Counted from the first letter of the stretch, positions 7,865 through 63,166 are shown. The stretch is DNA of 64,000 bases from an uncultured Candidatus Saccharibacteria bacterium (GCA_964349945.1 CAYGIH010000001.1:297218-361217); one strand, 5' to 3'. The notes: generated from the letters alone by a model not told the origin. Made by a program: numbers and translations.

Positions 7865-9793
7865 TTATTTAAGTTTTCGAGTGAGAGCAGTAAGGAGTGT
7901 ATCTAATTTCATTGTAGCCACTCCGACTACTTTGTCTGCCCCACCATAATAGATATAGAGAGTTCCTTTATTCAAAATTACTCCACAAGGAAAGACAACG
8001 TTGCTCACTAGGCCTTGTTTTTCATACTCTTCTCTCGGTTCGAAGATTGGATCGGCTAAACGAGAGATAACCACCGTTGGATCCTTCAAATCAAGCAAAA
8101 CAGCCCCGACTCTGTATTCATGGTGGGCTCTTGAAATCGCATGATATAAGAGTAACCAACCCTTTTTTGTCTTTATGGGTGGCGCAGTAATGCCTACCTT
8201 CACACTATCCCAAGCTCGCTCTCTTGGGCCTAAAACCCTAATGCATTTAGTAACCTTATCCTTCTTGAAATTCAATGAATTCAAATAGTCCGCACAAATA
8301 TCTGTGCCTATGCGATGAAGCACTAAATATTTTTTGTTTATTTTCTCTGGGAAAAGACAAGCATCTTTGTCATCTATGCCTCCTGGAGTTATAAGCTCCG
8401 GCGGAGTCCAATTGAAATTTTGTTTGAGAAAATCTTTGACTAGAATTGAAGAAGCGGCGACTCGTGGTGGTCCTATGCCATCATATGCAGTGTAGAACAT
8501 ATAGATACTGTCTCCAATTTTTGTCAGTCGTGGATCCTCACATCCAGAATTATTACCTTCAATCTTTTTCATTTCAAAACCTTCTCTAGGTACATAGACT
8601 GGCTCCTTTAGACGATTTTCAATATTTAAACCATCTTTGCTTATGGCGTACCCTATCGTAGATGTATTGTCATTCGAGATAGCTCTATAGAGAATATGCG
8701 TTCTACCATTAAGATATATAGCAGCAGGGTTAAGGACTGCCTGAGCCTCCCAAGCGTGATTCTTATTAGGTAGAAGTATTGGATTACTCATGTATCGTTT
8801 CGGCTCACTTCTATCTCTTTCCATAGGATTCATGGTATTGAGCAAATCATTTAAATTGACTGTGGCTCTACAACCAGTAGTATCTGCAGCGCCATAAAAT
8901 ATGTGCAGATTATCTTTCTCTAAAAGTGCTCCAGAGGGGAAAACTACTTCCCCCACAAAACCTACTACTTCATAAGTTTCCTCTGGAATCAAAATTGGAC
9001 CTCTGGTTTGGCCAATTATTTTATAAGGATTCTTTAAATCCAAAAGCATAGCTTCAATACCAAATATTTTTGGTTTATTTTCAGGATTAGGAAAATAATA
9101 CTGAATATATGAGTAAACAAGTAACCAACCTTGTTTGGTTTTAATTGGTGCTGCTCCAATCTCTATGTGGTCATATGGAGAACGTCTAGGATCTATTTCA
9201 AATTTATCCAAATTTCCCTCTAAATCTTTCCATGTATTTTCTGACCACAAGTCCTCAACTTTGTTTGTTTGCACAATAACTATTTTTGATGGAGGAGAAT
9301 CAGTATGGGCACTAAGTATGGCAGTCACCTTGCCTCCAATTCTCTCTGGGAAAAGTGTCATAGCCTTCGCATTAAATGGTGTCACCAAATGCTTAGAATC
9401 GACTTTCTTTAAATCTCTTGAAGTCGCCACAGCCACCTTTATCCCGCTGGCTTCAAATGGGTATTTAGAAAGTGCAGTATAAAACGTATAATACTTCTTC
9501 TCAAAATATGTTACCCGAGGGTCCTCACATCCATATTTCTCCCATTCCTCTGTGGGCAAAATAAACTGAACGTGATCATCAAAATAATTCTCATCTTTAC
9601 TTTTGGCCACACCAATAATCGACCTTTGACTTGGAGTATTCAAAACATCTGGCGCAGAAATAGCTCTGTAGAGCAAATATGTTGTCTTGCCCTTTTTAAT
9701 CGGCGAAGGATTAAAGGTGGCAAAACCATCCCAGGCATGTTCGTTTGATGGTATCAGAATCGGATTGTGATGTGATCTTTTGACAATATACAT
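7865..9793 (-). CDS. Tandem double-domain GH130 family glycoside phosphorylase/hydrolase
   Basis: Two complete GH130 domains in one ORF, each with NPIL(I/L)P…FNP…LLYRAIS and CEDPR motifs. The start was chosen at Met15 (9793), which leaves a 1-nt gap after the upstream stop. Confidence 0.8.
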   Translation of the reverse strand: MYIVKRSHHNPILIPSNEHAWDGFATFNPSPIKKGKTTYLLYRAISAPDVLNTPSQRSIIGVAKSKDENYFDDHVQFILPTEEWEKYGCEDPRVTYFEKKYYTFYTALSKYPFEASGIKVAVATSRDLKKVDSKHLVTPFNAKAMTLFPERIGGKVTAILSAHTDSPPSKIVIVQTNKVEDLWSENTWKDLEGNLDKFEIDPRRSPYDHIEIGAAPIKTKQGWLLVYSYIQYYFPNPENKPKIFGIEAMLLDLKNPYKIIGQTRGPILIPEETYEVVGFVGEVVFPSGALLEKDNLHIFYGAADTTGCRATVNLNDLLNTMNPMERDRSEPKRYMSNPILLPNKNHAWEAQAVLNPAAIYLNGRTHILYRAISNDNTSTIGYAISKDGLNIENRLKEPVYVPREGFEMKKIEGNNSGCEDPRLTKIGDSIYMFYTAYDGIGPPRVAASSILVKDFLKQNFNWTPPELITPGGIDDKDACLFPEKINKKYLVLHRIGTDICADYLNSLNFKKDKVTKCIRVLGPRERAWDSVKVGITAPPIKTKKGWLLLYHAISRAHHEYRVGAVLLDLKDPTVVISRLADPIFEPREEYEKQGLVSNVVFPCGVILNKGTLYIYYGGADKVVGVATMKLDTLLTALTRKLK

Positions 9794-9794
9794 A

Positions 9795-10925
9795 TTATTT
9801 TTTTGATTGAAGCCTGATTGGTTTATTTGAAACAATATCCTTTAATAATGATTCTAATTTAATAGTGGCTACACACACCACCGAATCTGCTCCTCCGTAA
9901 TACACGAACAACCACCCATCAACTACTACTGCGCCGCATGCATAAACAACTCCTGCCTTAAATCCCTCGTTCTCATAAACTTCATCTGGTTCAAGAATGG
10001 GTTGTTTAGAAATAGACACAACCTTTTTGGGATCCTTTAAATCAAGAATCATAGCTCCAAGCTTATATCTATTTGGGTCCTTTATATCCATCGCATGATA
10101 AAGCACTAACCAACCATACTTAGTCTTGATTGGGGCTGGCCCAACACCACGTAGCCATGTATCCCAAGACTTCGAGTGACCTTTACCTGATGGTGGAATA
10201 CTGTGTATAAATTTTGTCCCATCAAATTCTTTTAAATCTTTTATATACTCAATTTGTATATGTGGGGAAATCCCATGTAGGATTGCATACTTTCCGTTTA
10301 TTTTTTGTGGAAAAAGCACCCAATTTTTATGTATTTCATCAGGAGGAGAGATAAAAACATGTGGACTCCAATTCCACCTTTCGTTCACAAAATCTTTAAA
10401 ACTGATTGAGGTCAAAGCAATCCTTATGGCATTCCAACCATTAAACGATGTGTAGAGCATATAAACTCTATCATCTATGAGAGTAAGTCTTGGATCCTCT
10501 ACCCCACCATTCCAGCCACCACCAGAAGAATAATTTATTTTTTTAATATTATCTTTATCTATTGTCTCAAAATGGTAGTTCCGTTGAATATACGCTGGTT
10601 TAGAACCCCTTTTTTCTATAGTAAAGCCGTCTTTGCTCGTCGCATAGCCAAATACTGAAACATCACCAGCTCCAATAGCTCTATAAATTATATGAATTTG
10701 TCCATCTCCAAAAACTGCAGTTGGGTTAAAAGTAGCTTTTGATTGCCAATGAGAGTGGTGCACTGGAGCAATAATCGGATTGGCCACGAACCTTTGGAGC
10801 TGGTGAGGTTTCTTGGCTACTACTCGTTTCTTTATACTAACTTTTGTACGACTCTTTCTGACAACTTTTTTTACAGTTTTTTTCTTTAAAACTTTTTTAA
10901 CTTTCTTTTTCTTAGGTGCGGCCAT
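9795..10925 (-). CDS. GH130 family glycoside phosphorylase-like enzyme with a 45-aa Lys-rich N-terminal extension
   Basis: ANPIIAPVHHSHWQSKATFNPTAV…GGVEDPRLT is a GH130 domain. The N-terminus reads MAAPKKKKVKKVLKKKTVKKVVRKSRTKVSIKKRVVAKK. The ATG overlaps the cupin stop, which suggests translational coupling. Confidence 0.8.
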   Translation of the reverse strand: MAAPKKKKVKKVLKKKTVKKVVRKSRTKVSIKKRVVAKKPHQLQRFVANPIIAPVHHSHWQSKATFNPTAVFGDGQIHIIYRAIGAGDVSVFGYATSKDGFTIEKRGSKPAYIQRNYHFETIDKDNIKKINYSSGGGWNGGVEDPRLTLIDDRVYMLYTSFNGWNAIRIALTSISFKDFVNERWNWSPHVFISPPDEIHKNWVLFPQKINGKYAILHGISPHIQIEYIKDLKEFDGTKFIHSIPPSGKGHSKSWDTWLRGVGPAPIKTKYGWLVLYHAMDIKDPNRYKLGAMILDLKDPKKVVSISKQPILEPDEVYENEGFKAGVVYACGAVVVDGWLFVYYGGADSVVCVATIKLESLLKDIVSNKPIRLQSKK

Positions 10926-11262
10926 ATTTATCTTCTAAACGCTCTATATCATTCTCATCAAATTCTCCATGGGAAATTTCAAGAAACTCCACATCATCAT
11001 CTATGGCGGAAATTCTATGTGCTACTCCTATCGGCACAGTAAATTCATCACCAATATTCGCCCTCGTTACTATTTCACCATCTGTGACTTCTGGAGTACC
11101 TTTCAAAATTTTCCAAAATTCACTGCGCTTATGATGTTCTTGGAGACTCAAACTTTCTCCCCTTTTTACTTTTATGAGCTTCACTGTGACCTTGTCATTT
11201 AGAGTAAATTCTCTAAACTCGCCCCACGGCTTTTGAATTGTAAAAGGTAATTTTGTAGACAT
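10912..11262 (-). CDS. Cupin-domain protein, type II mannose-6-phosphate isomerase (ManC C-terminal)-like
   Basis: KPWGEF…ESLSLQEHHKRSEFWKILKGTPEVTDGE…PIGVAHRISAI…LEISHGEFDENDIERLEDKYGR parallels the PMI cupin of ManC. Confidence 0.7.
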   Translation of the reverse strand: MSTKLPFTIQKPWGEFREFTLNDKVTVKLIKVKRGESLSLQEHHKRSEFWKILKGTPEVTDGEIVTRANIGDEFTVPIGVAHRISAIDDDVEFLEISHGEFDENDIERLEDKYGRT

Positions 11263-11274
11263 AATATGTAGATA

Positions 11275-12063
11275 TCATACACCCATTTGACTCTGTTTTA
11301 TAAGCCCTCTTATGAATTGCTTTGTGTCCTCAATACCAGGGTCCCCTACAGATTTATAGCCAATATTGAGGCGAATTATTGACGTATCGTTGCCATCTTT
11401 ATAAAAAGCATCACCCACATAAAACACTTGTTCACTATTCAAATTGAGAAACTTCATGAGTTTTTCTATCCCATACGCCTTATCTATGCCTTTGGGGGTG
11501 ATGTCTATAGAAGTGGTGCCACCCAACTTCACTGAATATTCAGGGAGTTTCCTTGATAGGACATCTTTTAATTCATCTCTAATTTTCCTGTCTGGGTCCC
11601 ATTTTTCTTTTAGCTCAATGGGCGCCTTCATTCCTAATCCAGAGAAAGTTATCTGCGAACCTCTGTCTTCTATGAGTTCTCCATAGATTCTTTCTTCTTT
11701 TTGAAATCCTGTTTCTTTAAAAGTTTCTTCAAAGGCTTTCAGGATTTTTAGCTTTTCTTCTTGTGCTAACTCATGACTATATACACGTTGCCACTTGTCT
11801 TTATACTCATAAAACGCAGCTCCGTCTGTAGGTAATAAATATAAATTCTTTAATAATTCTGATGGACACACAAGACGGTCCAAAAACTGCTCCTCAAACT
11901 GTTTAAACGATGCCCCAGAGATAACAGCCACCTTTTTAATATTGAGTAAATCACAAAGCAAATCATTCATCTCCACATCAAGTGGAGACTTGCTCTCAGT
12001 GAGGGTTTGATCCAAATCAAAAACAATTACCTCGACTTTTTCCATAGCATAATTATACACCAT
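11275..12063 (-). CDS. HAD-IIB hydrolase, eukaryotic-type phosphomannomutase-like
   Basis: FDLDQTLT DxD motif, ISGASFKQ, and C-terminal GGTTSIDITPKGIDKAYGI…YVGDAFYKDGNDTSI resemble PMM (PF03332). The true start may be Met7 at 12045. Confidence 0.65.
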   Translation of the reverse strand: MVYNYAMEKVEVIVFDLDQTLTESKSPLDVEMNDLLCDLLNIKKVAVISGASFKQFEEQFLDRLVCPSELLKNLYLLPTDGAAFYEYKDKWQRVYSHELAQEEKLKILKAFEETFKETGFQKEERIYGELIEDRGSQITFSGLGMKAPIELKEKWDPDRKIRDELKDVLSRKLPEYSVKLGGTTSIDITPKGIDKAYGIEKLMKFLNLNSEQVFYVGDAFYKDGNDTSIIRLNIGYKSVGDPGIEDTKQFIRGLIKQSQMGV

Positions 12064-12065
12064 TC

Positions 12066-12091
12066 AAAAGCCACCCAGTTGGGTGGCTTTT
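12066..12091. terminator. Bidirectional hairpin terminator
   Basis: AAAAGCCACCCA-GTT-GGGTGGCTTTT is a perfect 9-bp stem flanked by an A-run and a T-run. Confidence 0.6.
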
Positions 12092-12165
12092 GACTATTTC
12101 TTAGCCTTTTTTGGCTTCTTTTTTTCTTTGTTTCCTCTAAGTTGTCCTTTGGCCATATATTTTTT

Positions 12166-18881: not shown

Positions 18882-19742
18882 TTACCATATTAAATCATTT
18901 AATATGCCGTTCTCAATCATGTTTAGATTAAAAACATATTCATTATGATTATATGTCTCTTCGAGGGGTCTGAGTGCTGTCTCCCAGCCTTTCCCATCGG
19001 TAATCCAAATAAAATCAATGTTTTGCTTTCTTAAATCTGTATATAGACTCTTGAATTCGCCACATACAGCTTTCAGTTTTGATCCTCCCCCATTATAAAA
19101 ATTTACTTCTAAAAGTTTGATTTTATTATTTTTGGGATTATATATTGCGAAATCAAAACTTCTGCTAGATTTATCTACTTCAACGATTAACCCCCATTCT
19201 TCCTTTATTTTTTTAGCATTAACCTGTTTAAGATAAGCTAAACCTTTGTCATTACAAAATTTAATAATATTAGCTTCAGTTATATCTTCCATTAGAGTTC
19301 CTTCTCTGTTTTTTCTGCCATTACTATCTAAACCAACCTCAACTCCAATAACGTAATCAACAAGATTTTTTATACCATCTTCATTAAATAATTTTGCTAG
19401 TCCAGTATTTTTTATAAAATCATAGTATTCTTCAGCTTTTTTATTAGCATTGTTATTAAAATTGAAAAACATGCTTTTTTTAGTTTCTAAATCAAAAAGC
19501 TCAATATTTTTTTCACGTATCGCAAGAAGTGCTGGTATAGCTCTTATAATATCTGGATTTGACGAATAAAGTTTAATAAATTCTTCTTTTAAATTTTTCT
19601 TTCCTAAAAGATAATTCAATTTATTTAGAATTATTTCTAACTCTGAACTATGAGAAAATACTTTATTCCAATTAACAAAATAATCCCATGTTTTAATAGA
19701 ATTTTTGAAGGTATTAACTAAATAATTAAAATCTTTTTTCAT
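18882..19742 (-). CDS. Type II restriction endonuclease, DpnII/MboI (GATC) family
   Basis: 286 aa. LVDYVIGVEVGLDSNGRKNREGTLMEDI, LLEVNFYNGGGSKL and FIWITDGKGWE align with recalled R.DpnII segments (LVDYVTGVEVGMDTNGRKNRTG…, LIEVNFYSGSGSKL, FMWITDGQGW). Confidence 0.8.
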   Translation of the reverse strand: MKKDFNYLVNTFKNSIKTWDYFVNWNKVFSHSSELEIILNKLNYLLGKKNLKEEFIKLYSSNPDIIRAIPALLAIREKNIELFDLETKKSMFFNFNNNANKKAEEYYDFIKNTGLAKLFNEDGIKNLVDYVIGVEVGLDSNGRKNREGTLMEDITEANIIKFCNDKGLAYLKQVNAKKIKEEWGLIVEVDKSSRSFDFAIYNPKNNKIKLLEVNFYNGGGSKLKAVCGEFKSLYTDLRKQNIDFIWITDGKGWETALRPLEETYNHNEYVFNLNMIENGILNDLIW

Positions 19743-19743
19743 G

Positions 19744-21339
19744 TTATTTTGTAATATTATTTTTAAGATAATTCCATGTTTCTATACTTTTTGTAAAAAT
19801 TTTATTTTCATTCAGATTTTTATCTTTCCTCATTTGCTCAATATAATATTTTTGTAAAATATTAAATATTTCATTTATATCTGTTTCGCTGTTTGATTTT
19901 AAATAATAGAGACCAGCTATAATATGAAAGTCCATATGCCTAAGCATGCTTTTTTTGTTTTTATTTTTTTCACTTTTAATTTTTTTATCTACCAAAATTC
20001 CAATATCACATAATTCTATTATCCTGTTTGAATTAGTTTTGATTAGCTTTTGAACTTTTTCATATTCTCCGCGTATATCATTTTCAAAAATACTTTTTCT
20101 TGCATTTTTTGCTTGAGCTGGTTGCATATAGAATGCAGCATAAGACCATTGAAAAAATTTAATATATGGAATATTCATAATTTTTTTATCATGAAGTGAG
20201 CCTTTCCTGTTATAAATATATTTTCCTTTGCTTTTATTAAAAATAAAAATCTCCAATTCCTTTTGAAATAAATCATTTGTCCTAAGATCTTCCACTCTAA
20301 CAGCTTTTTGCGTATTAGATGATTCACAAATTCTATCAATCAACTGTTGGTCAACTGCTTGTATAAGCTTACATACAACCTTCGCATTTTTAAAATGAAT
20401 ATCTTTAGGGTTATTTTTATATAAACTAGAAAGATTACCAATAGTTTGCGCCCCATTAACAACTTGTGGCTCAATAATTTTATATTGCCTACTTTCACTT
20501 ATTATTTTTTTAGCAATAATCGTAATACCATTATGAAAAAGAAAAAACTTTTTAGTTTCATTTTGAATTGTCTTCAAAAGACCGTTTTGAAATTTAAAGT
20601 TTTTATGAGGAATCCTCACATTACTTGAAAATAAATCCTTATTATCATCAATATGTTTCTGATAAAGCTTTAGTAAGTCTAAAACGTTTACATTTACTAT
20701 TATTTCAGAGTACTCTTTTCTATCATCAATGGGCCACATTTTTGTTGCCGAGTTTACTGATAAATTCCATTCTGACAAAAAATCTATCTCAAGTAATTTA
20801 GAAATAACTTCATCAAGTGTTAGCAATGTTAAATTAACATTCGCTATATTTTTTATATCCTGTAACATAGCATCAACTTGCTTCCCAAACTTTTTAGGAT
20901 ACTTTTTTCTTATTATAAAAAGATTAATGACTTTGCGCTTATTTTGAGAAGAATGCCATTGTTTTATTTGCTTTTTTAAACGTTCACATATAGAAAAATC
21001 TTTTGGTTTTGCCTTTAAAAAATTTCTTATAATGCTTTCTCTAAAATTCTTTAGATCATTTGTTCCTAATCCCTCTTCAATTTTAAAATCAAATAGATCT
21101 AAAGACTCCTTAGCGAACACAACAGCGTCTACACCGTCATCAAAAATCCCATCTGTTATTATTAATTTAAAATCTTCATCTGTATGTTCTTTTTTATAAA
21201 TTATATTTAAACAAGTAATTATTAGAGAGTATGCCTTTTCACTAGAACCATCAAATCCTTTGCTTTGAAAATACTGAACAAGTCTTCTTGCTTGCGTTGT
21301 GTTTTTATCAATCAATGATGTCAATATCTCATTCTTCAT
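19744..21339 (-). CDS. AIPR-like abortive-infection protein (tentative) embedded in the R-M operon
   Basis: 531 aa. The N-terminal ITDGIFDDGVDAVVF is a Mrr-like DGxxDxG motif. The internal FHNGITI and VVNGAQT motifs resemble AIPR family hallmarks recalled from memory. Gaps of 1-3 nt separate it from the flanking MTase and REase genes. Confidence 0.55.
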   Translation of the reverse strand: MKNEILTSLIDKNTTQARRLVQYFQSKGFDGSSEKAYSLIITCLNIIYKKEHTDEDFKLIITDGIFDDGVDAVVFAKESLDLFDFKIEEGLGTNDLKNFRESIIRNFLKAKPKDFSICERLKKQIKQWHSSQNKRKVINLFIIRKKYPKKFGKQVDAMLQDIKNIANVNLTLLTLDEVISKLLEIDFLSEWNLSVNSATKMWPIDDRKEYSEIIVNVNVLDLLKLYQKHIDDNKDLFSSNVRIPHKNFKFQNGLLKTIQNETKKFFLFHNGITIIAKKIISESRQYKIIEPQVVNGAQTIGNLSSLYKNNPKDIHFKNAKVVCKLIQAVDQQLIDRICESSNTQKAVRVEDLRTNDLFQKELEIFIFNKSKGKYIYNRKGSLHDKKIMNIPYIKFFQWSYAAFYMQPAQAKNARKSIFENDIRGEYEKVQKLIKTNSNRIIELCDIGILVDKKIKSEKNKNKKSMLRHMDFHIIAGLYYLKSNSETDINEIFNILQKYYIEQMRKDKNLNENKIFTKSIETWNYLKNNITK

Positions 21340-21341
21340 AC

Positions 21342-22148
21342 TTAGGATTTTTTATTTTTCAAATTCTTATCTAATTCCTCATATCTTTTTATAGATACAT
21401 CTAAGTACTTTTTTTCTAAGTCTACACCTATAAACGTTCTTCCGTACAAGTGAGCCGCCACCCCAGTAGTTGAGCTACCTGTAAATGGGTCTAAAATAAC
21501 ATTTCCTTTATTTGTACTAGCCAATACAATTCTCTTCAATAAATCTTCTGGTTTTTGGGTAGGATGCTTCCCAAATTTCTTTTCAATTGGTTTTGGTGTC
21601 CCCATTGACCAAACTGAGCGCATTTGAAGGCCTGGTTTTTTTAACGCATCTTCTGGCCATGTTCCATTCTTCATCAAATCATAGTTAAATATGTGTTTTG
21701 CCTTTTTATCTTTTCTGGCCCAAATAAGAGTTTCATGACTTGCTGTGAAAAATCTACAACTTAAATTTGGTGATGCATTTGGTTTAAACCATGCAATATC
21801 ATTCAACACGTGAAATCCCGCAACTTGTAGGGCAAAACCACATTGATAAATTGAATGATATGTTCCACTTATCCAAATTGTCCCACTTGGTTTTAATACC
21901 CTATGAACCGCTTTTATCCATTCAAGATGGAATTCAAAATCTTTTTTTAGTCCATTGCTTTTATCCCAATCTCCTTTATGAACGCTGACCATTTTCCCCG
22001 CATGAACAGTAAAACCTCCATTTGAAAGCAAATATGGAGGATCTGCAAAAACCATATCAACAGAATTTTCTTCCATATCAGCCAAAATATCCAAACAATT
22101 TGCTTGATAGAGGGTAAAATTTTTATCTTTGTAATATGGTTTCTTCAT
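21342..22148 (-). CDS. Beta-class N6-adenine DNA methyltransferase, DpnA/M2.DpnII-like (GATC inferred)
   Basis: N-terminal DMVFADPPYLLSNGG (motif IV, DPPY) and C-terminal VILDPFTGSSTTGVAA (motif I). There is extended similarity to the recalled DpnA sequence (…VLKPSGTIWISG…GKHPTQKPE.LL.RI.LAST…). Confidence 0.9.
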   Translation of the reverse strand: MKKPYYKDKNFTLYQANCLDILADMEENSVDMVFADPPYLLSNGGFTVHAGKMVSVHKGDWDKSNGLKKDFEFHLEWIKAVHRVLKPSGTIWISGTYHSIYQCGFALQVAGFHVLNDIAWFKPNASPNLSCRFFTASHETLIWARKDKKAKHIFNYDLMKNGTWPEDALKKPGLQMRSVWSMGTPKPIEKKFGKHPTQKPEDLLKRIVLASTNKGNVILDPFTGSSTTGVAAHLYGRTFIGVDLEKKYLDVSIKRYEELDKNLKNKKS

Positions 22149-25706: not shown

Positions 25707-26363
25707 TTAAACCGCCTTATCTGCAAAGACTACAAGTCTGTTGGGGCGGTTTTGTGTTTTAGCATCCCATTTACCTGAACAGGTGATGAGGTTTAAGTGA
25801 GCCTTGCCATCGTTTGAAGAAAATACTTCTGTGGCATCTGCATCATTGGCCATGATTTTTGTCTTCATTACTATAAAAGTGACTGTCACGCCATTTTCAT
25901 CTATCACTTTTATTTTGTCCCCTATTTTTATCTTGGATAGGTTATCAAAAACCGCTGGAATTCCATTCTTCCAACCAAAATGTCCTGCAATGGTCGCACT
26001 ACCTATGTCCCCTGGTTTGGGTCCGTACTTGTACCATCCTGTGTTTATAGGTCCAGCTGGAGAATCCATGGCTCCTTCCTTGGTTAGACCTAGTCGCTCG
26101 ATGGGTGCATCTACATTTATACTTGAAATGATTAGACGAGAAAGTTTTGGTTTGGAAGTATTTGCCACTATGACCTTCGCTTCCTCCGTACTGCTCTTGG
26201 TTATAGTGAGAGGTGTGGTGGTTGCTTCTACGACTTGAATTACATTTGCGGCTTGAACAAGATCTTTGTTTTGTTCGACAAATTTATCTGCATTAATCCA
26301 GAGAACGATAACCCCAACACAGACTAGTAATAAGACCCATTTTAGTGAGATAAGAGTCTTCAT
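25707..26363 (-). CDS. Sortase (transpeptidase)
   Basis: N-terminal TM segment, ATIAGHFGW (sortase AGH motif) and HLNLITCSGKW (TLxTC catalytic Cys). Confidence 0.8.
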   Translation of the reverse strand: MKTLISLKWVLLLVCVGVIVLWINADKFVEQNKDLVQAANVIQVVEATTTPLTITKSSTEEAKVIVANTSKPKLSRLIISSINVDAPIERLGLTKEGAMDSPAGPINTGWYKYGPKPGDIGSATIAGHFGWKNGIPAVFDNLSKIKIGDKIKVIDENGVTVTFIVMKTKIMANDADATEVFSSNDGKAHLNLITCSGKWDAKTQNRPNRLVVFADKAV

Positions 26364-26378
26364 AGATGTTTTGTGAGA

Positions 26379-27635
26379 TTAAACTAACTTCTTCTTATCA
26401 ACTAGAACTATCACCAAAGACAAGAGAGTGAAGATGCCAAGATAAGTAAGGAATACTGAGGCGAAGGAAGCTTCCTCTGTGTATAGTCCAGTATTTGGAA
26501 GAGCGGGTATAAAGTAAGGAGGAGGTACAAAGGTTGTTGTTGCTATAGAAGTAGTCGTAGCTGTTGGAGTAGTGTAAGTGGTAACTGTATTTCTTCGGTG
26601 TCCACCCAGTGTAGGGGCAGCAATATCATCATTTGTAACTGTACATTGATAATTTCCATCTGCTGAAAGTGTAATATTTCCATTTGCATCACAATCTCCT
26701 GCAAATGATTGAGTGTAATTTACATCTGAAGTTTCTGTTATTGCATAAGTTGTAGCCGCAAAGTTATTTAGTATTCCTGAAACAACAGCTGTCGCACCTA
26801 CAAACAATGGGAAGTCTGAAACTATTTTTGTTCTACCGCTGTCATTAATAACCGTCTTAGTAATTGTTAATGAGGCTGGGTTAGAACAAGAAGGCACAGT
26901 GATAGTATTTATGGCTGCGATTCCACCGTTTGAAGTAACTGTTCCTCCATAAGCAAGTGCTCGTCCTACCCAATCAACCGTATCTCCGATAGTGATTCCT
27001 GCTGCATCTAGAACTGTTCCCTTGAATGTTGAATTCGCACCAAGAGTTGTGGCTGCAACTGGAGTCCAAAAGACATCACAAGCCGAAGCGCCGTTTAGGA
27101 CAACTGAAGTATTGGCACCTGTAGTGACTGCTCCACCTGTTGATTTGAAAATATAAGTTCCAGATCCATTTAGAGTGATGGAACCGTTGTCAACAATATT
27201 CATGGCTCCTGCTCGATAGTAACAACCTGGAGGAAAGTGCCCTGGTGTTCCTCCATTTATGACTATGGCATCCAAGTTGCCAACTTCACCAATATTTGTA
27301 CAACTTAAGAGATATTGGTTGTTTAGATTAGCTAGAGCAGCATTTTGGGCAATACCGGCAGCTGTCCAAGCGGCATTGTTTACTTCTGTAGTACCGTTTG
27401 AAGTATTGATTATCCCTAGTCCTGCTATAGAAGAATAGCCGAGAACTCCTAAGGTATTACCTACCACACCAGTGATGGTAGTCGTGGCATTGTGTTGAAA
27501 CAAGTTAGAAATGAGGCCAAAGGTGTTGGCTGTCCCTAGAGAAGGAGTTGTGGCTGCAAGAGCTCTATTTGGCCCTATAAGAGAGAATAGAGCAAACATT
27601 ACCAAACTTGGGATTATATAGTTAATTTTTTTCAT
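26379..27635 (-). CDS. LPXTG-anchored surface protein with an ice-binding-like (DUF3494) N-terminal domain
   Basis: Signal peptide, then LGTANTFGLISN…TTITGVVGN (DUF3494-like). A Thr-rich stalk follows, and the C-terminus has LPNTG, a hydrophobic segment and KKK. Confidence 0.8.
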   Translation of the reverse strand: MKKINYIIPSLVMFALFSLIGPNRALAATTPSLGTANTFGLISNLFQHNATTTITGVVGNTLGVLGYSSIAGLGIINTSNGTTEVNNAAWTAAGIAQNAALANLNNQYLLSCTNIGEVGNLDAIVINGGTPGHFPPGCYYRAGAMNIVDNGSITLNGSGTYIFKSTGGAVTTGANTSVVLNGASACDVFWTPVAATTLGANSTFKGTVLDAAGITIGDTVDWVGRALAYGGTVTSNGGIAAINTITVPSCSNPASLTITKTVINDSGRTKIVSDFPLFVGATAVVSGILNNFAATTYAITETSDVNYTQSFAGDCDANGNITLSADGNYQCTVTNDDIAAPTLGGHRRNTVTTYTTPTATTTSIATTTFVPPPYFIPALPNTGLYTEEASFASVFLTYLGIFTLLSLVIVLVDKKKLV

Positions 27636-48397: not shown

Positions 48398-49645
48398 ATG
48401 ATGACAGTCAGCCAGATAATCCTATCTGTTTCTCTATTTATCTCACTTTTTTTTGAGATATTTGTATTAATAACTTTTTTTGAGACAAAAGAGGAACTTA
48501 AACGCGAAGAGGAGTTTTTGAAAAAGAAAATTGAACACTATCCTTCTGTGACTATTATTGTCCCCGGATTTAATGAAGGAGAAACTGTCACTGCGACGGT
48601 TAAGTCACTTTTATCCTTGGATTATCCAAAAGAGAAATTGTATCTAATGCTCGTGGATGATGGTTCAACAGACAATACTTTTGAGGTTATGAATCGATTC
48701 AAGAACCATCCTCAAATTCAAATCTTTAGAAAAGAAAATGGGGGGAAACACTCTGCTTTAAATTTTGCACTTGAAAAAATTGACACTGATCTTGTTGGAT
48801 GCCTAGATGCTGATTCGTTTGTATCTACTAATGCACTAAAGTTGATGGTTCCGCTTTTCTTGGATAAGGCAACTATGGCAGTAACACCAAGCATTAAAGT
48901 TCAGGAGGAAACAAATATTTTACAAAAAATTCAGAAAATTGAATATAACTGGGGAATTTTCTTTCGTCGCATGCTTTCTTCGATGGGGGCAATGTATGTG
49001 ACTCCTGGACCATTTTCTATATTTAGAACCAAAGTTTTTAGAGACCTAGGTGGCTACAGACATGCCCATCATACAGAAGATATGGAAATGGCTCTTCGTA
49101 TGCAAAAGAATCACTATAAAATTGTAAATTCAGTTAACGCTCATGTTTACACCATTACTCCAAAGAAGTTTAAAAACTTGTTCAAACAGAGAACACGCTG
49201 GACCTATGGTTTTTTAAATAATGTTATTGACTACAAGGAGATGTTTTTCAATAAAAAATATGGCCACATTGGTTTCTTTATTCTCCCTATAGCCAGTATT
49301 TCTATACTAAGTTGTTTATATGCAGCTGGTATGCTTATTTGGCACCTTGGACAGAATTTTATGGATATGATCAATAGATTTAATGCTGTAGGATTCTCTC
49401 CTAAATTCCCAAATTTTCATTTAGATTGGTTCTTCTGGAGTACAAGCATTACTACATTTTTAGTAATAACAGCTGTAGCCATAAACATCGCATTACTCAT
49501 TATGTCTGCAAAAATGGCTAAAGAGAAAAGTTTGATAGGCAAACCTCTGCTTTATTACCTTGCAATTTATGCATTAATTGTACCTACTTGGATAGCCAAG
49601 GCTACATACAGCACTCTGTTCTCCAAAGAGATTAGTTGGAGATAA
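48398..49645 (+). CDS. Family 2 processive beta-glycosyltransferase (NodC/PgaC/chitin-synthase-like)
   Basis: VTIIVPGFNEGE, LVDDGSTDNT, CLDADSF (DxD) and KQRTRWTYG (QxxRW), with C-terminal TM segments. Confidence 0.8.
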   Translation: MMTVSQIILSVSLFISLFFEIFVLITFFETKEELKREEEFLKKKIEHYPSVTIIVPGFNEGETVTATVKSLLSLDYPKEKLYLMLVDDGSTDNTFEVMNRFKNHPQIQIFRKENGGKHSALNFALEKIDTDLVGCLDADSFVSTNALKLMVPLFLDKATMAVTPSIKVQEETNILQKIQKIEYNWGIFFRRMLSSMGAMYVTPGPFSIFRTKVFRDLGGYRHAHHTEDMEMALRMQKNHYKIVNSVNAHVYTITPKKFKNLFKQRTRWTYGFLNNVIDYKEMFFNKKYGHIGFFILPIASISILSCLYAAGMLIWHLGQNFMDMINRFNAVGFSPKFPNFHLDWFFWSTSITTFLVITAVAINIALLIMSAKMAKEKSLIGKPLLYYLAIYALIVPTWIAKATYSTLFSKEISWR

Positions 49646-57791: not shown

Positions 57792-58640
57792 CTATATTTT
57801 ATTGAATAATTTTAATTTGGCAGTGACTACTTTTTTCATTTCTTCTACTCCTAGAGCCAAGAATTTATATGGAGCTACTTCGTCTTTTTTCATTCCCTCT
57901 TCTACACCATGTTTGTACGCGAGTCGAATTTCTGTATTTATATGCACAATAGAGATACCTGCTTCTATGGCAGAGACGACATCTGCATCACTATTACCTG
58001 ATGCTCCATGGAGCACGAGTGGAATTTTCACCTTCTCATGGATAGCTTTAATAAGTTCTACATTAAGTTTTGGCTCCCCTGTCTTCACCATCCCGTGGAT
58101 ATTACCTACTGATGGAGCGAACATATCTATGCCTGTCTCATTGATAAATCTTTCTGCATCTTCTGGTTTGGTTTGTGTTTCTTCGCTTACTCCTTCTGGT
58201 ACTTTGTCTATTATCTTCGATGATTGTCCAATGAATCCAAGTTCTGCTTCTACTAAAATATCTGGATTTTTTGACTTGGCATAAATTACTGCTTCTTTGG
58301 TCAGCTTCACATTCTCTTCAAAAGAAAGTTTGGCTCCATCTATAATGACCGAGTCAAAACCTGCATTGACTGCTTCCTTCACCTTTTCTATAGAATAAGT
58401 ATGGTCTGCATTAAGAAATACTGGGTATTCCTTAAACCGCTCTGCATCTACCATCGCTCTGATTTCATCAACTCCGATAAAATCTCTTTCTCCTTCTGAA
58501 ACCCCAATAATCACTGGTACCCCAAGTTCTTTGGCTGATTCAACAACAGCCTTAAATCCTTCAGAATCTGAGATGTTGAAATGCCCTATGGCTACCTTTT
58601 TTTGTACTGCTTCATCCACATATTCTCTTAGTGTTTTCAT
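57792..58640 (-). CDS. fba: Class II fructose-bisphosphate aldolase
   Basis: …VAIGHFNISDSEGFKAVVESAKELGVPVIIGVSEG…LNADHTYS…LVLHGASG are class II aldolase motifs. Confidence 0.9.
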   Translation of the reverse strand: MKTLREYVDEAVQKKVAIGHFNISDSEGFKAVVESAKELGVPVIIGVSEGERDFIGVDEIRAMVDAERFKEYPVFLNADHTYSIEKVKEAVNAGFDSVIIDGAKLSFEENVKLTKEAVIYAKSKNPDILVEAELGFIGQSSKIIDKVPEGVSEETQTKPEDAERFINETGIDMFAPSVGNIHGMVKTGEPKLNVELIKAIHEKVKIPLVLHGASGNSDADVVSAIEAGISIVHINTEIRLAYKHGVEEGMKKDEVAPYKFLALGVEEMKKVVTAKLKLFNKI

Positions 58641-58676
58641 AGTCTCATTTTAACACGTCATGCTACAATATTATAA

Positions 58677-59663
58677 ATGCACGATTTTATCGCTATTGGA
58701 GACACTGTTATTGATGCTTTCATAAAACTCAAGGAAGCTACGGTAGTTGGCACACCCGATGAAGCCAATTATAAAATCTGCCTCCCCTTTGCTGATAAGG
58801 TACCTTACGAAAGCGTCAATGTTATCCCTGCTGTTGGTAATTCTGCTAATGCAGTCGTTACTGCATCGAGGCTTGGATTAAAAACCGCTATTGTCACCAA
58901 TCTTGGAGATGATACTTATGGTCAAGATTGTCTAGATGCACTAAAGAAAAACAACATTGATACAAGTTTTGTGAAGATTCATGTTGGAGCAAAAACAAAT
59001 TATCATTATGTTTTGTGGTACGAAGCAGATAGAACCATACTCATTAAACACGAAACTTATCCATATTCACTTCCAGAAATTGATACACCCAAATGGCTAT
59101 ACTTTAGTTCTGTGAGCGAGAATGCCTATCCATTTCACAACACAATCGCAGATTTTTTAGATACTCATCCAGAAACAAAATTAGCTTTCCAACCAGGGAA
59201 GAATGAAATCAAATTAGGTAAAGAAAAATTGGAGAGACTTTATAAGCGCGCTGATATTTTCTTTTGTAATGTTGAAGAAGCTGAAAAAATCCTCGGCATA
59301 GAAACCTTGGGTATAAACGAATTAATTAAAAGAATGTTTGAACTTGGTCCAAAGATAGTTGTTATCACCGATGGCCCTAAGGGTGCATATGCGTATGATG
59401 GCACTGATTTATGGTTTGCTCCTGTTTATCCAGATCAAAGACCTGCATACGAACGCACAGGGGCTGGAGACGCTTTCGCTTCAACCGTTGCCTCTGCTAT
59501 TGCTCTGGGTAATGACTTAAGAACTGCCCTTATGTGGGGAGCCACAAATTCTATGTCTGTAGTCCAAAAAGTTGGTGCTCAAGAGGGATTGTTAACAAAA
59601 GAAGCGCTTGAGAGTCTCCTCCAAAGCGCCCCTTCTGACTTTAAACCTCAAAAAATTAATTAA
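58677..59663 (+). CDS. PfkB family carbohydrate kinase
   Basis: Ribokinase-like fold with a C-terminal ERTGAGDAFAS (DTxGAGD anion hole). Confidence 0.8.
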   Translation: MHDFIAIGDTVIDAFIKLKEATVVGTPDEANYKICLPFADKVPYESVNVIPAVGNSANAVVTASRLGLKTAIVTNLGDDTYGQDCLDALKKNNIDTSFVKIHVGAKTNYHYVLWYEADRTILIKHETYPYSLPEIDTPKWLYFSSVSENAYPFHNTIADFLDTHPETKLAFQPGKNEIKLGKEKLERLYKRADIFFCNVEEAEKILGIETLGINELIKRMFELGPKIVVITDGPKGAYAYDGTDLWFAPVYPDQRPAYERTGAGDAFASTVASAIALGNDLRTALMWGATNSMSVVQKVGAQEGLLTKEALESLLQSAPSDFKPQKIN

Positions 59664-59674
59664 AAAGAGCACCA

Positions 59675-59872
59675 CTAGGCGCTCTCTGTGGCTGGAAGCT
59701 CGACCCTCACTACGAATGGTGGGTCAACATCAGAGTCATGGCAACACATGATGTATATCTGCCAATCATTGAATCCACTGTCACGTAGAAGCCGATAAGT
59801 CTTTTCGGGTATTTCTCTCCTCGTGTTTTGACTCGAGTGTCCGCTCATCGGTTCTCCAAAGAGAAAGAGCAT
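59675..59872 (-). CDS. Hypothetical small ORF or gene remnant (GC-rich)
   Basis: 65 aa with no recognised motif. Confidence 0.2.
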   Translation of the reverse strand: MLFLFGEPMSGHSSQNTRREIPEKTYRLLRDSGFNDWQIYIMCCHDSDVDPPFVVRVELPATESA

Positions 59873-59922
59873 GAATTCTCTAGGAAGAATAACTTCTTAA
59901 TCAATTTGAGTCAATTCACATT

Positions 59923-61848
59923 TTACTGAGCTGGAAGGGTTTTTGTTTGACTGTCAGTTACTCCATGAGCACCTTCACTCACAGTAAGAGTAAGGGGTCG
60001 AGCAATATCACTTCTCCCTATATTCATTGACCCTGATGGTAGCACTATGCTACCTGCATCATAAGGATAGTTTGGATTATAACCAAGCAAGGTGGCATTC
60101 GTACAAGATGGACTGACAGAATAGTTAACCACCCATTCACTTCTTCTTGTAGAACCATTCCAAACAGACGTTGCATCCCAAGAATTAATTTTGCATGTCG
60201 CAACTGTGTCTGCCACATTGATATAAGTGACACTAGCTTGGGCTTGCCCACCAGGACCAGTACATGAATACGTAAATGTTCTAGGTAAGGTGCTCTCAGT
60301 CAACCACCCAGGACCAATTGCAATACTGCCACTCCTAGTGATTGGTTGATTAGCATATCGACACCCTTCGCCTGCACACAAGCCTCTACTAAATACACTG
60401 TCACCATTCATTAAACATGTTGTGGCATATCTGGCAGAAAAATCCAAAGCAGATAACGAACCTGGGGCTACTACATTACTTCCAGCCCACCAAGAAGGAC
60501 TGACCGAAAGACTCACTTCTGGTCTTCTGCAAACTCCGTTAAGCATCCAATCACTCTGACAAGTTGTTGTTGGAGTTGATGTGGCTGTTGGAGAAGTGGA
60601 AGTTGCTGTTGATGTTGCAGCGGGTCCTCCTGTGTTTCCTGAACCTGAAGTGCCTATATTGACCTGAACACTATCACTAATATTTTTTACACCCGTATTG
60701 TCCATATATGCACAAGCGATTTCGTATTTAGTGTTAGCAGTTAAATTACCTGTAGTTCTATTACCATTTGTCTGAACAATATCTGCTGGGTATTGATTGT
60801 TGGTTGATATGGCACAAAGTAACAAATTACCTGTCGATGTCCACCTTAAACTCACTGAACTGCCACTAGATACCATTACCGGACCATCAGAATTATTTAC
60901 TTTTATATCCAATGTCGGAGTAACAAATGCCTGATTCGCACCGTTGCCCGATCCGTTCCCTGTGCCAGTATTACCGCTATTACCAGAACCAGTGCCTGTG
61001 CCAGAACCCGCACTACCAATTTCATCCTCATCAGCTGGAGCCTGTGCAATAGATGTTCTCGTTTGAACACCAACGAAGCCAGTTGTTTGAATGTTATTCG
61101 CTCGTTGATATGCTTGAACAGCCGCTCGAGTTAATCCAAAAAAGTTACCTGTAGGGGCACCAGTCATATAACCTCTATCAATCAAAAATTGTTGGATTGC
61201 TCTTACTTCAGTGTTGTTTCTCATTCCATAGCGCAAATCACTGGTTATAGAAATAATACTATTTCTATTTGTAACCGAATTATTTGTTGAACCAGAAGTA
61301 GAATTTTTTAACAAACAAGAATCACAATTTATAGGAGGCCAAGCGGGTATAGAGTTTGTAACGCTACTACCCAACCAAAAACCCATTTCGTAAAACCAAA
61401 CAGCAGGATGAATTGTAAAACGATTCTGATTAATATATTGCAAAACAGAAATTGCGTCTTTGCATGTTAGATATAAATTATAATTTACATCATCTTGAGC
61501 TGGAGGTTGCCATGTAGGATCACCAAAAGCTCCTAATTTGCTGATTGGAGATAAATCAGGAGTGCATCTATTCCAGTTTGGGTACTGGTTTAAAACACCT
61601 TGCATGCGATCAAAATATATTTTTTGCTGTGATGATGAATTATAACCAAGATAAACACAATAATTTCCTTCTAAATTGCTCATGTTTTGAGCAATAATTG
61701 ACCCATTTGGATATTTGTAACAACCTTTACTGCTTGTAGTAGCTTGATCAATTGTCTTTAAAATACTATTAGGTATAACAGCTTGAACTGAATTTGTACT
61801 TATTAATATAACGAAAGTAAAAATGGCAACAGCTAAAAATCTTTTCAT
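59923..61848 (-). CDS. Secreted protein with a peptidoglycan-binding (PG_binding_1) domain and a Gly/Ser/Thr-rich C-terminal region
   Basis: Signal peptide. EVRAIQQFLIDRGYMTGAPTGNFFGLTRAAVQAYQRANNIQTTGFVGVQT is the PGBD consensus. A low-complexity GSGTG stretch is followed by Cys-containing Ig-like segments. Confidence 0.6.
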   Translation of the reverse strand: MKRFLAVAIFTFVILISTNSVQAVIPNSILKTIDQATTSSKGCYKYPNGSIIAQNMSNLEGNYCVYLGYNSSSQQKIYFDRMQGVLNQYPNWNRCTPDLSPISKLGAFGDPTWQPPAQDDVNYNLYLTCKDAISVLQYINQNRFTIHPAVWFYEMGFWLGSSVTNSIPAWPPINCDSCLLKNSTSGSTNNSVTNRNSIISITSDLRYGMRNNTEVRAIQQFLIDRGYMTGAPTGNFFGLTRAAVQAYQRANNIQTTGFVGVQTRTSIAQAPADEDEIGSAGSGTGTGSGNSGNTGTGNGSGNGANQAFVTPTLDIKVNNSDGPVMVSSGSSVSLRWTSTGNLLLCAISTNNQYPADIVQTNGNRTTGNLTANTKYEIACAYMDNTGVKNISDSVQVNIGTSGSGNTGGPAATSTATSTSPTATSTPTTTCQSDWMLNGVCRRPEVSLSVSPSWWAGSNVVAPGSLSALDFSARYATTCLMNGDSVFSRGLCAGEGCRYANQPITRSGSIAIGPGWLTESTLPRTFTYSCTGPGGQAQASVTYINVADTVATCKINSWDATSVWNGSTRRSEWVVNYSVSPSCTNATLLGYNPNYPYDAGSIVLPSGSMNIGRSDIARPLTLTVSEGAHGVTDSQTKTLPAQ

Positions 61849-61883
61849 ATGGTAATAATTATTTATAAACTACCTTAATAATA

Positions 61884-62864: not shown

Positions 62865-62868
62865 ATAT

Positions 62869-63162
62869 TTAGACCGTTGAGAAAATAAGTACAAAGAACA
62901 AAAAAGCCATAATAAATGCAAGAATTACATATCCAACTATACTTTTTAACTGATTTTTGGTTTCAAGCTTACCTGTTCTTTCTAATTTTTTAGATCGAAA
63001 AAATACAAAAGGAATAATTAATAAAAGCATTATACTTGGAAATGTTAATAGAGAAGACAAAGAGGACAAAACAGGAAATCTATTTGCCATTGGATCAATA
63101 GTTCCCATAAAAATTATAAATATAAAAGTTATCCCTACAATCCAAGAAAGTTTTTTTGTCAT
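62869..63162 (-). CDS. Small membrane protein lying between the two transketolase halves
   Basis: 97 aa with three TM segments. Confidence 0.4.
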   Translation of the reverse strand: MTKKLSWIVGITFIFIIFMGTIDPMANRFPVLSSLSSLLTFPSIMLLLIIPFVFFRSKKLERTGKLETKNQLKSIVGYVILAFIMAFLFFVLIFSTV

Positions 63163-63166
63163 AAAT

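Follow-up and report, generated by a model that had tools for sequence, protein, structure and literature searches.

The stretch of DNA analysed here, referred to below as the window, comprises 64,000 nucleotides from an uncultured Candidatus Saccharibacteria bacterium (GCA_964349945.1 CAYGIH010000001.1:297218-361217), and the subject of this report is a compact operon at positions 7865-12063 that encodes a predicted HAD-family sugar-phosphate mutase, a cupin of the phosphomannose isomerase (PMI) type, a single GH130 protein and a protein with two GH130 modules in tandem. An initial annotation had described four co-directional genes, three GH130 domains packed into two of them and a cupin stop codon that overlaps the downstream GH130 start, and all three statements hold. 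The genes lie on the minus strand in the order given; Pfam family PF04041 is matched once in the single gene (8.6e-43) and over two stretches in the tandem gene (open reading frame (ORF) listed as 7865-9835; 4.2e-89); and the overlap measures 14 nt (ATGGCCGCACCTAA), which are also the first 14 nt of the region that encodes the polybasic tail of the single GH130. The features of the locus are as follows:

12064-12093, no strand assigned: terminator-like hairpin with a 13-bp stem, 7/13 pairs G-C, closing the upstream small gene.
12051-12056, minus strand: TATAAT, a -10-like box read from the sequence, just 5' of the probable HAD start.
11275-12045, minus strand: predicted HAD-IIB phosphohexomutase of the phosphomannomutase (PMM)/PgmH type, 256 residues; the ORF reaches 12063.
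10912-11262, minus strand: stand-alone type II PMI-like cupin (PF01050), 116 residues.
10803-10925, minus strand: polybasic N-terminal tail of the single GH130, with 20 Lys/Arg in 41 residues.
9795-10802, minus strand: catalytic module of the single GH130 ('GH130s'; PF04041); the whole gene spans 9795-10925 and encodes 376 residues.
8804-9793, minus strand: N-terminal GH130 module (N-module) of the tandem protein, with sugar subsites intact and phosphate ligands replaced.
7865-8797, minus strand: C-terminal GH130 module (C-module) of the tandem protein, with the full β-1,2-mannoside phosphorylase signature.

The reading frames of the cluster either overlap or abut one another. The 14-nt overlap between the cupin and single GH130 genes recurs identically, judged by ORF coordinates, at no fewer than 13 other loci, and the ATG of the tandem gene lies one base past the TAA of the single GH130 gene, an arrangement that is consistent with co-translation of the cluster genes. 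The start of the tandem gene is assigned to the ATG at 9793, giving 642 residues, and not to the TTG at 9835, because the relatives of this protein are all 637-664 residues long; an exact look-up of the 656-residue ORF that begins at the TTG returned no match, as expected if that start is wrong. The HAD start is probably the ATG at 12045, giving 256 residues as annotated in relatives. The rationale for treating the four genes as a unit of their own is based on the hairpin at 12064-12093, the TATAAT at 12051-12056 and dnaE, which converges on the downstream side of the cluster at a distance of 25 nt. The position of the TATAAT suggests that the transcript leader of the HAD gene is very short or absent. 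A promoter scan of the region did not rise above chance (12 found versus 14.9 expected), so that the hairpin and the TATAAT are taken as leads only, and searches returned no riboswitch, other Rfam family or tRNA near the operon and no further paralogues of the four genes within the window. Directly upstream of the hairpin, at 12097-12156 on the minus strand, lies a Lys-rich ORF of 20 codons (MAKGQLRGNKEKKKPKKAKK) that is found, 100% conserved, in front of an MFS transporter gene in a 90%-identical relative (L001 4442-4501).

A fundamental question is what chemistry the three GH130 modules would carry out. The diagnostic positions of the family include the proton-donor Asp and an Asn/Asp at the -1 subsite, and an Arg/His pair binds phosphate in all GH130 phosphorylases and is missing in hydrolases (PMC7660257, PMC4599007, PMC12814180). 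A further pair of residues at the +1 subsite corresponds to the linkage, with Tyr/Arg for β-1,4, Glu/Lys for β-1,2 and Glu/Arg for β-1,3 (PMC7660257). Reference positions were rebuilt from alignments to 9fj8, 7fip and 9erh, and the numbering was checked on E136, K184, R202 and R242 of Uhgb_MS. The residue alignment comprised 82 N-modules, 82 C-modules and 54 single GH130s from the loci described below, and the residue count was repeated on an independent set of 120 + 120 database proteins.

The C-module, residues 346-645 of the listed 656-residue ORF, matches 9fj8 at 2.2e-60 and is 44% identical to Teth514_1788. The signature N, R, E, D, K, R, K/R, H and D is complete in 82/82 and 120/120 orthologues. 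Within it, N356, D421 and D621 account for the proton donor and the -1 subsite in every one of these sequences, and the phosphate site has R495 and H552, the counterparts of R168/H231 of Uhgb_MP, and Y561, each 100% conserved, together with K533 (K or R in 100%); as motifs, the site reads HR (Arg 100%), K/R, YH (His 100%) and Tyr-Arg. The +1 pair consists of E420 and K477, both 100% conserved, which is the β-1,2 type. By the published residue criteria, the C-module is classified as a β-1,2-mannoside phosphorylase.

The phosphate site of the N-module is built differently, and no Arg/His pair is present. HRR has become H-(T/S)-D (HTD in the window), with S/T at the R202 position and an Asp165 that is 100% conserved; the second basic residue (R242) has become His/Gln (His in the window), with a Glu211 two positions further on that is likewise 100% conserved; YH has become Y-(S/A) (YS in the window), with S/A in place of H261; and Y-R-x-G has become F-G-x-E, with Phe in place of Tyr and with Glu247 conserved in 92-99% of sequences. 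The basic ligands are thus gone and the carboxylates D165, E211 and E247 adjoin their former positions, and carboxylates replacing phosphate ligands are the published logic of phosphorylase-to-hydrolase conversion (PMC4599007, PMC7660257). On the strength of this exchange the N-module looks hydrolase-like. A profile of 10 sequences scored 1.7e-59 against the phosphorylase 9fj8 and 9.7e-23 against 5a7v, the mannosidase from Bacteroides, and the five best PDB alignments of the module and of the profile were all to phosphorylases; as the N-module is thus nearer to phosphorylases, a conversion to a hydrolase would be independent of that in GH130_3. Moreover, the translation begins directly with the domain (MYIVKRSHHNP...), which is fused to the phosphorylase module, and thereby differs from the extracytoplasmic GH130_3 type.

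The single GH130 (2.9e-53 to 9fj8) fits neither the phosphorylase nor the hydrolase class when judged by the same residues. The phosphate Arg, R168 of Uhgb_MP and R202 of Uhgb_MS, is Gly218 in the window, and orthologues carry S/G/N/A at the R202 position, with Arg in only 2/54 and 1/120. The other phosphate ligands are kept, namely H277 (94-95%), Y287 (100%) and K/R288 (~90-99%); the basic residue one position past R242 is Arg in 120/120 and R/K in ~97% of the 54; and a Lys323 has been gained that is 100% conserved and stands beside an aromatic residue matching, by spacing, the cradle of the -1 subsite. The initial annotation had proposed three phosphorylases and had named the conserved phosphate-binding residues as one means to check it. 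That check separates the modules: only the C-module carries the Arg/His pair together with the Lys and Tyr, and the key Arg is missing from the other two in nearly all orthologues, so that the proposal of three GH130 phosphorylases is not upheld.

The sugar subsites tell a more uniform story. The sugar-subsite Asn, Arg, Glu, Asp, Lys and Asp are kept in all three modules, in 98-100% of sequences (the N, R, E, D, K and D of the single GH130 included), and the Glu/Lys pair of the β-1,2 type is invariant throughout. Since the residues at subsites -1 and +1 do not vary, the N-module and the single GH130 are predicted to bind the same sugar as the C-module. The best structural matches of the modules are β-1,2-mannoside phosphorylases, with the β-1,4 enzymes 4udg, 5ayd and 3was far weaker, and the Glu/Lys pair taken with these relatives makes β-1,4-mannan and N-glycan cores, the substrates first proposed for the operon, unlikely ones. 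Scores against NCBIfam models reach 413.5 and 222 bits versus an equivalog cut-off of 450, and because they fall below the cut-offs the modules are regarded as new subgroups and not as orthologues of characterised enzymes. The loop of Teth514_1789 that carries Trp120 and bears on chain length aligned ambiguously to all three modules.

A second feature sets the single GH130 apart. A polybasic tail of 30-120 residues precedes the catalytic domain in 29/54 short-form orthologues, and in 20/54 the tail is replaced by one transmembrane helix, with a net charge of ≤0 before it and ≥0 after it; the orthologue from Minisyncoccus has both. By the positive-inside rule the catalytic domain of the helix-bearing forms would be cytoplasmic (N-out/C-in), and as tail and anchor alternate at the same position they would serve the same job at the inner face of the membrane. 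This pattern suggests that tail and anchor hold the single GH130 to the cytoplasmic face of the membrane. No signal-peptide-like N-terminus was seen in any of the four proteins when their translations were read by eye, with no predictor applied. A further 26 'single' GH130s are 600-650 residues long and carry an extra N-terminal domain of ~270 residues with a weak GH130 match of ~5-38 bits (L030 6147-7973, L023 2353-4191, L062 6106-7989 and 23 others); this domain may be a degenerate fourth GH130 module that replaces the tail or anchor.

The HAD protein matches PF03332 (PMM) at 4.4e-12, PF08282 at 3.7e-13 and TIGR01484 at 2.1e-22. Its best solved relative is 4bnd, the α-phosphoglucomutase PgmH of Lactococcus lactis, at 2.5e-38 and with 35% identity over 230 residues, and eukaryotic-type PMMs match it at 1e-13 to 1e-6. 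The core motifs (DxDxT and motifs II-IV) are intact and the Arg/Ser motif of the cap is also conserved; across 47 orthologues, D16, D18, T20, R134, S141, K195, D218, N225 and D226 are kept in ≥90%. One way in which the initial annotation could have failed was for this protein to group with non-PMM phosphatases. It does not: the top 17 matches in the PDB are all PgmH or PMMs, and the first other HAD hydrolase appears at E = 0.0029. The description of a eukaryotic-type PMM-like enzyme is thus upheld as to the mutase family and its motifs, and is revised as to the closest relative, which is an α-phosphoglucomutase. Judged by homology, the protein is a mutase of the PMM/PgmH type, and homology alone does not indicate mannose. 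Mannose phosphates are favoured as its substrates because the gene recurs beside GH130 genes, whose product would be α-mannose-1-phosphate, and because it occurs fused to a PMI cupin in protein P0206. HAD mutases ~50% identical to that of the window are also found in records labelled as DPANN archaea (Nanoarchaeia, Aenigmarchaeota and Micrarchaeota; P0166, P0178, P0189 and P0199), which hints at either sharing between two groups of ultra-small symbionts or mis-binning.

The cupin matches PF01050 at 7.6e-19 (68.5 bits versus a cut-off of 23.6) over profile positions 11-116 of 116, and it corresponds to the C-terminal part of GMP_PMI TIGR01479. Its metal ligands, arranged as Q-x-H...E...H, are Q41, H43, E48 and H82, conserved in ≥90% of 58 orthologues, so that both the type II PMI domain and its metal site are present.

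How widely is this arrangement distributed? At E ≤ 1e-10 the tandem protein has 5995 relatives in a protein database; the top 120 of these 5995 are full-length and 63-90% identical to it, and the names, where a record carries one, are Minisyncoccia, Patescibacteria, Parcubacteria, Nomurabacteria or Paceibacterota. When one genome was scanned for each species, at least 466 stretches with a relative of the tandem protein were returned, in records that are mostly labelled Patescibacteria/Paceibacteria; the best 80 stretches were taken as loci (L008-L087), and synteny was counted over 82 loci after removal of redundancy. In 80/82 loci the gene immediately upstream of the tandem gene is the single GH130, and the remaining 2 are truncated by the end of a contig; a cupin gene was counted in ~62/82 and a HAD gene in ~49/82, the latter standing upstream, downstream or divergent according to lineage. 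L001-L007 and L088 show this gene order as well, and public contigs that share it carry a HAD identical to that of the window. The loci include the complete genome of the cultured Minisyncoccus archaeiphilus (L069), an organism that can be grown in co-culture and that carries the GH130 pair and the cupin. Genomes that bear the cluster are labelled as coming from groundwater, lakes, bogs and other settings, at protein identities of 50-90%. The four-gene arrangement is not chance, and the cluster is no peculiarity of this genome but is conserved in many Paceibacteria. Records labelled Saccharibacteria, Nanoarchaeota, 'archaeon' or Gammaproteobacteria (L009, L020, L045, L071, L074 and others) also carry this Paceibacteria-type operon, and such odd taxon labels are probably binning or labelling errors.

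Few other genes accompany the cluster. When the neighbouring genes at the 82 loci were clustered, every other family stayed at 17 loci or fewer, and neither transporters nor glycanases formed a recurrent family beside the operon. A gene for an MFS sugar transporter stands directly upstream of the HAD in one genome only, that of the 90%-identical relative, and is not found in the window. In ~9 loci (L004 5135-5611, L006 5240-5740, L019-L022, L060 and L072) the gene immediately upstream of the HAD encodes a cytidylyltransferase-like protein of ~160 residues that scores best against RfaE domain II, a manno-heptose-1-phosphate adenylyltransferase, at 69 bits, which is below the cut-off. A nucleotidyltransferase is fused to the HAD in protein P0217, and no nucleotidyltransferase gene lies near the operon in the window. 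Protein P0206 (JGI metagenome, 363 residues) is a natural in-frame fusion of a HAD mutase with a PMI-type cupin, and these rare fusions, HAD-cupin and nucleotidyltransferase-HAD, support functional coupling. In the lineage with a membrane-anchored single GH130 (L026 3656-5805; L025, L027, L033, L039 and L040), the flanking genes encode BacA/UppP, a GT2 of 253 residues, DedA/VTT and PAP2, in 7-8 loci each, with the GT2 and DedA genes running divergently from the operon.

Taken together, we favour the reading, at a probability of roughly 0.6, that the operon encodes a cytoplasmic and partly membrane-associated set of enzymes that links β-1,2-mannosides to fructose-6-phosphate (Fru-6-P) in a reversible, ATP-free manner. 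In the first step, the C-module would interconvert β-1,2-Man(n) plus inorganic phosphate (Pi) with Man(n-1) plus α-mannose-1-phosphate (Man-1-P), a prediction based on its residue signature and its 44% identity to a characterised enzyme. The HAD protein would then interconvert Man-1-P and mannose-6-phosphate (Man-6-P), as its family, context and fusions suggest, and the cupin, for which the conserved metal ligands can be added to the same three grounds, would interconvert Man-6-P and Fru-6-P. All three steps would run near equilibrium with no need of ATP. More speculatively, the N-module most likely hydrolyses or otherwise trims β-1,2-mannosides, and the single GH130, which would be tethered at the cytoplasmic face of the membrane, would probably have a membrane-proximal substrate and work as a phosphorylase of atypical kind or as a transferase. 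This scheme retains the backbone of the route first proposed, from β-mannoside through Man-1-P and Man-6-P to Fru-6-P, which remains the most economical reading given the class-wide synteny, the HAD-cupin fusion P0206, the intact HAD motifs and the cupin ligands; the parts of that proposal that called for three phosphorylases and β-1,4 substrates are given up.

Several observations weigh against this reading. The nearest characterised relative of the HAD protein is an α-phosphoglucomutase and not a PMM, and PgmH itself is reportedly glucose-specific and inactive on mannose phosphates (the 2006 work of Neves and colleagues). To our knowledge no member of the four orthologue groups has been assayed, and we know of no natural source of β-1,2-mannosides for these bacteria. 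The HAD gene is not in the neighbourhood at ~40% of loci and the cupin at ~25%, partly from cut contigs, and no stand-alone PF01050 cupin that is solved or characterised was found. In the N-module, any correspondence to Glu227/Glu268 of BT3780 is tentative, E211 being equated with Glu268 by residue spacing. Finally, reading function from the phosphate site is uncertain in principle, because active-site residues alone do not decide between phosphorylase and transferase in family GT108 (PMC10913872) and because the R202A variant of Uhgb_MS lost its transferase activity and kept weak phosphorylase activity (PMC12814180).

Where, then, would the mannosides come from? The evidence divides roughly evenly between sugars scavenged from outside and sugars made by the cell, and we lean slightly toward a pool that is cell-made. 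One form that such a pool could take is an intracellular β-1,2-mannan reserve resembling mannogen, in which Fru-6-P is converted to Man-1-P (and in some lineages to a nucleoside diphosphate mannose), polymerised through reverse phosphorolysis or transfer and later phosphorolysed once the host no longer supplies the cell, in a cycle that spares nucleotides, with the GH130 modules serving as tethered primer or elongase, as phosphorylase and as trimming hydrolase. We hold this to be possible but tentative. Every step would be reversible and ATP-free; the cluster is conserved widely and strongly without a linked transporter, and the membrane tether also fits; and the differing phosphate sites of the paralogues parallel those of the glycosyltransferase (GT)-only and GT/glycoside phosphorylase (GP) enzymes of Leishmania (PMC10913872). 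The RfaE-domain-II-like nucleotidyltransferase upstream of the HAD, or fused to it in P0217, would also fit, and β-1,2 GH130 enzymes also use GDP-mannose, if weakly (PMC12814180). However, the window has no such gene near the operon, the nucleotidyltransferase beside the GH130 genes of Thermoanaerobacter has been read as salvage to GDP-mannose (PMC4264767), and loss of R202 abolished transferase activity in Uhgb_MS. In addition, high cellular Pi usually favours phosphorolysis, and the searchable literature yielded no report of β-1,2-mannan in any Patescibacterium.

A scavenging route is the other possibility that we regard as tenable yet doubtful: β-1,2-mannosides of host or environmental origin would enter through an unlinked transporter and meet the tethered GH130, the tandem protein would degrade them, and the HAD and cupin would feed glycolysis. 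Degradation would suit a hydrolase-like module, the window encodes an aldolase, a PfkB kinase and a transketolase of glycolytic and pentose-phosphate metabolism, and those bacterial relatives that have been characterised are interpreted as working inside the cell in catabolism or salvage (PMC4264767). The MFS gene that adjoins the HAD on its upstream side in the 90%-identical relative points the same way, but it is found in one genome among the 82 loci and no transporter family recurs; nor does a glycanase family, so that the linked transporter and upstream depolymerase that mark a catabolic locus of the polysaccharide-utilisation type are not a recurrent feature of the 82. Moreover, β-1,2-mannans are rare in nature (PMC4264767), yet the cluster is kept at 50-90% identity across varied settings. 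The mannoside transporter that had been suggested as a check on the original proposal is thus not conserved beside the cluster, and the dedicated salvage of host glycans that it would have served remains an assumption.

A synthetic role in the envelope is unlikely. In such a scheme the tethered GH130 would transfer β-1,2-mannose onto an acceptor that is lipid-linked or in the membrane, with Man-1-P supplied by the rest of the operon, which would account for the anchor or polybasic tail and for the GT2, BacA/UppP, DedA/VTT and PAP2 neighbours of the anchor lineage. Those neighbours are nevertheless confined to one sub-lineage, may reflect shared gene-order ancestry and lie on the opposite strand, and the link to lipid-carrier genes is down-weighted for its restriction to that sub-lineage; the tandem protein has no membrane feature, and no GH130 is known to act on lipid-linked acceptors. 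It is more improbable still that the four genes are simply neighbours, with the HAD a general α-phosphoglucomutase and the cupin in another role. The best characterised relative of the HAD and its variable position (upstream, downstream or divergent) would agree with this, but even with these rearrangements the HAD and cupin are found repeatedly next to the GH130 pair in deep lineages, a HAD-cupin fusion exists and the 14-nt overlap between cupin and GH130 is found in many loci. Least probable of all is the catabolic salvage of β-1,4-mannan, Man-β-1,4-Glc or Man-β-1,4-GlcNAc from a host or partner by three phosphorylases, to which the early history of GH130 as a family of β-1,4-mannoside phosphorylases (after which the Pfam model is named) and a glycolytic bearing of PMM and PMI genes had pointed, but against which stand Glu/Lys and not Tyr/Arg in all modules, far weaker matches to 4udg, 5ayd and 3was, the missing phosphate Arg in 2/3 modules and the lack of a conserved transporter or endo-mannanase nearby.

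If the favoured link between β-1,2-mannosides and Fru-6-P is correct, its significance lies with the organisms as much as with the enzymes. Paceibacteria (Parcubacteria) are among the most widespread uncultured bacteria, with genomes of ~1 Mb or less, and their nutrition, storage and uptake from hosts are poorly understood. Retention of 4 kb at 50-90% protein identity in hundreds of species implies that the operon must matter to the cells that carry it, and it offers a concrete and testable handle on the carbon metabolism of this class, for which Minisyncoccus archaeiphilus is usable. For enzymology, the tandem protein is a natural GH130-GH130 fusion in which one half has seemingly turned from phosphorylase to hydrolase independently of the Bacteroides mannosidases, the tethered GH130 has a rebuilt phosphate site that places it outside the published mechanism classes, and the HAD protein is possibly a mannose-specific member of the PgmH-type mutases. 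A mannan reserve, if it proved true, would be a bacterial counterpart of Leishmania mannogen and the main carbon buffer of ultra-small, host-dependent cells.

The component families are already known, as is, in concept, the route from a GH130 phosphorylase through PMM to PMI. What appears to be new is the class-wide operon of Paceibacteria, the pairing of a canonical with a hydrolase-like module in tandem, a tethered GH130 that lacks the phosphate Arg, and a HAD of the PgmH type in a setting of mannose enzymes. As to GH130-GH130 proteins, only four sequences, all uncharacterised, have been noted in CAZy (PMC7660257). The searchable literature on GH130, DUF377 or PH1107 with the Candidate Phyla Radiation (CPR) or Patescibacteria gave one incidental mention, of 'two GH130 enzymes' in the genome of a member of Microgenomates (PMC7143001), and no other trace of the operon.

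Elsewhere in the window, a minus-strand gene at 40307-42781 encodes a protein of 824 residues with matches to the shoulder domain of the eukaryotic Major Vault Protein (PF11978, 1.4e-24), a vault repeat and an SPFH/Band-7 domain, and around this vault-like gene the G+C content is the highest in the window (0.52 versus ~0.38). At 18882-22148 (minus strand) a low-G+C island (0.29-0.30), probably a mobile defence island, encodes a DpnII-type restriction endonuclease, an AIPR abortive-infection-like protein and an N6/N4 DNA methylase. At 25707-27635 (minus strand) a sortase gene adjoins a gene for a protein of 418 residues with an ice-binding-like domain (PF11999), which may be a sortase-anchored surface protein. 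On the plus strand at 48398-49645 is a membrane GT2 synthase like the poly-β-1,6-GlcNAc synthases PgaC/IcaA (179 bits, below the cut-off), followed by a protein of 239 residues with no Pfam match. At the far end of the window, genes of sugar-phosphate metabolism cluster at 57792-63976; they encode a class II fructose-bisphosphate aldolase, a kinase of the PfkB family that resembles ribokinase at scores below cut-offs, and a transketolase divided between two genes.

Comparison with known systems places each part of the operon. The mannogen enzymes of Leishmania (GT108, MTP1-7) are likewise paralogous five-bladed propellers that act on β-1,2-mannan, in which differences at the phosphate site separate roles and which are linked to Man-1-P and sugar-phosphate metabolism (PMC10913872); the modules here are assigned to GH130, the operon has no GDP-mannose pyrophosphorylase, and a mannan in these bacteria is hypothetical, so that the likeness concerns how the system may work and not family membership. 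The HAD protein, which groups with PgmH and eukaryotic-type PMMs, matches PgmH over its full length and differs from it in a context that points to mannose, not glucose, phosphates. With respect to the C-terminal PMI domain of ManC/AlgA (PF01050), the cupin covers nearly the whole domain and keeps the Q-x-H...E...H ligands, but stands alone here without a guanylyltransferase domain.

Among GH130 enzymes, the Bacteroides β-1,2-mannosidases BT3780 and BACOVA_03624 (GH130_3) share with the N-module the lack of the Arg/His pair, the carboxylates beside the lost ligands and the retention of the catalytic Asp and the β-1,2 Lys, whereas the N-module has no signal peptide, is fused to a cytoplasmic phosphorylase and is closer in sequence to phosphorylases. 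Uhgb_MS and Lin0857, GH130_4 enzymes with phosphorylase and weak transferase activity, have the β-1,2 specificity residues in common with the present modules at ~30-32% identity; their long lid loop is absent here as read from the alignments, which begin at about query residue 57. The closest counterparts are Teth514_1788 and Teth514_1789 of Thermoanaerobacter sp. X-514 (GH130_6; PDB 9fj8 and 7fip), phosphorylases of β-1,2-oligomannan and β-1,2-mannobiose that provide the best solved matches for all three modules. Both clusters have two adjacent GH130 genes whose products lack signal peptides. The Thermoanaerobacter cluster contains an ABC transporter, a GH5, a Man-1-P guanylyltransferase and a GT4 (PMC4264767), whereas the present one has a GH130-GH130 fusion, altered phosphate sites in 2/3 modules, a HAD mutase and a PMI cupin. 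In the C-module, every catalytic, phosphate-site and β-1,2 signature residue is shared with Teth514_1788.

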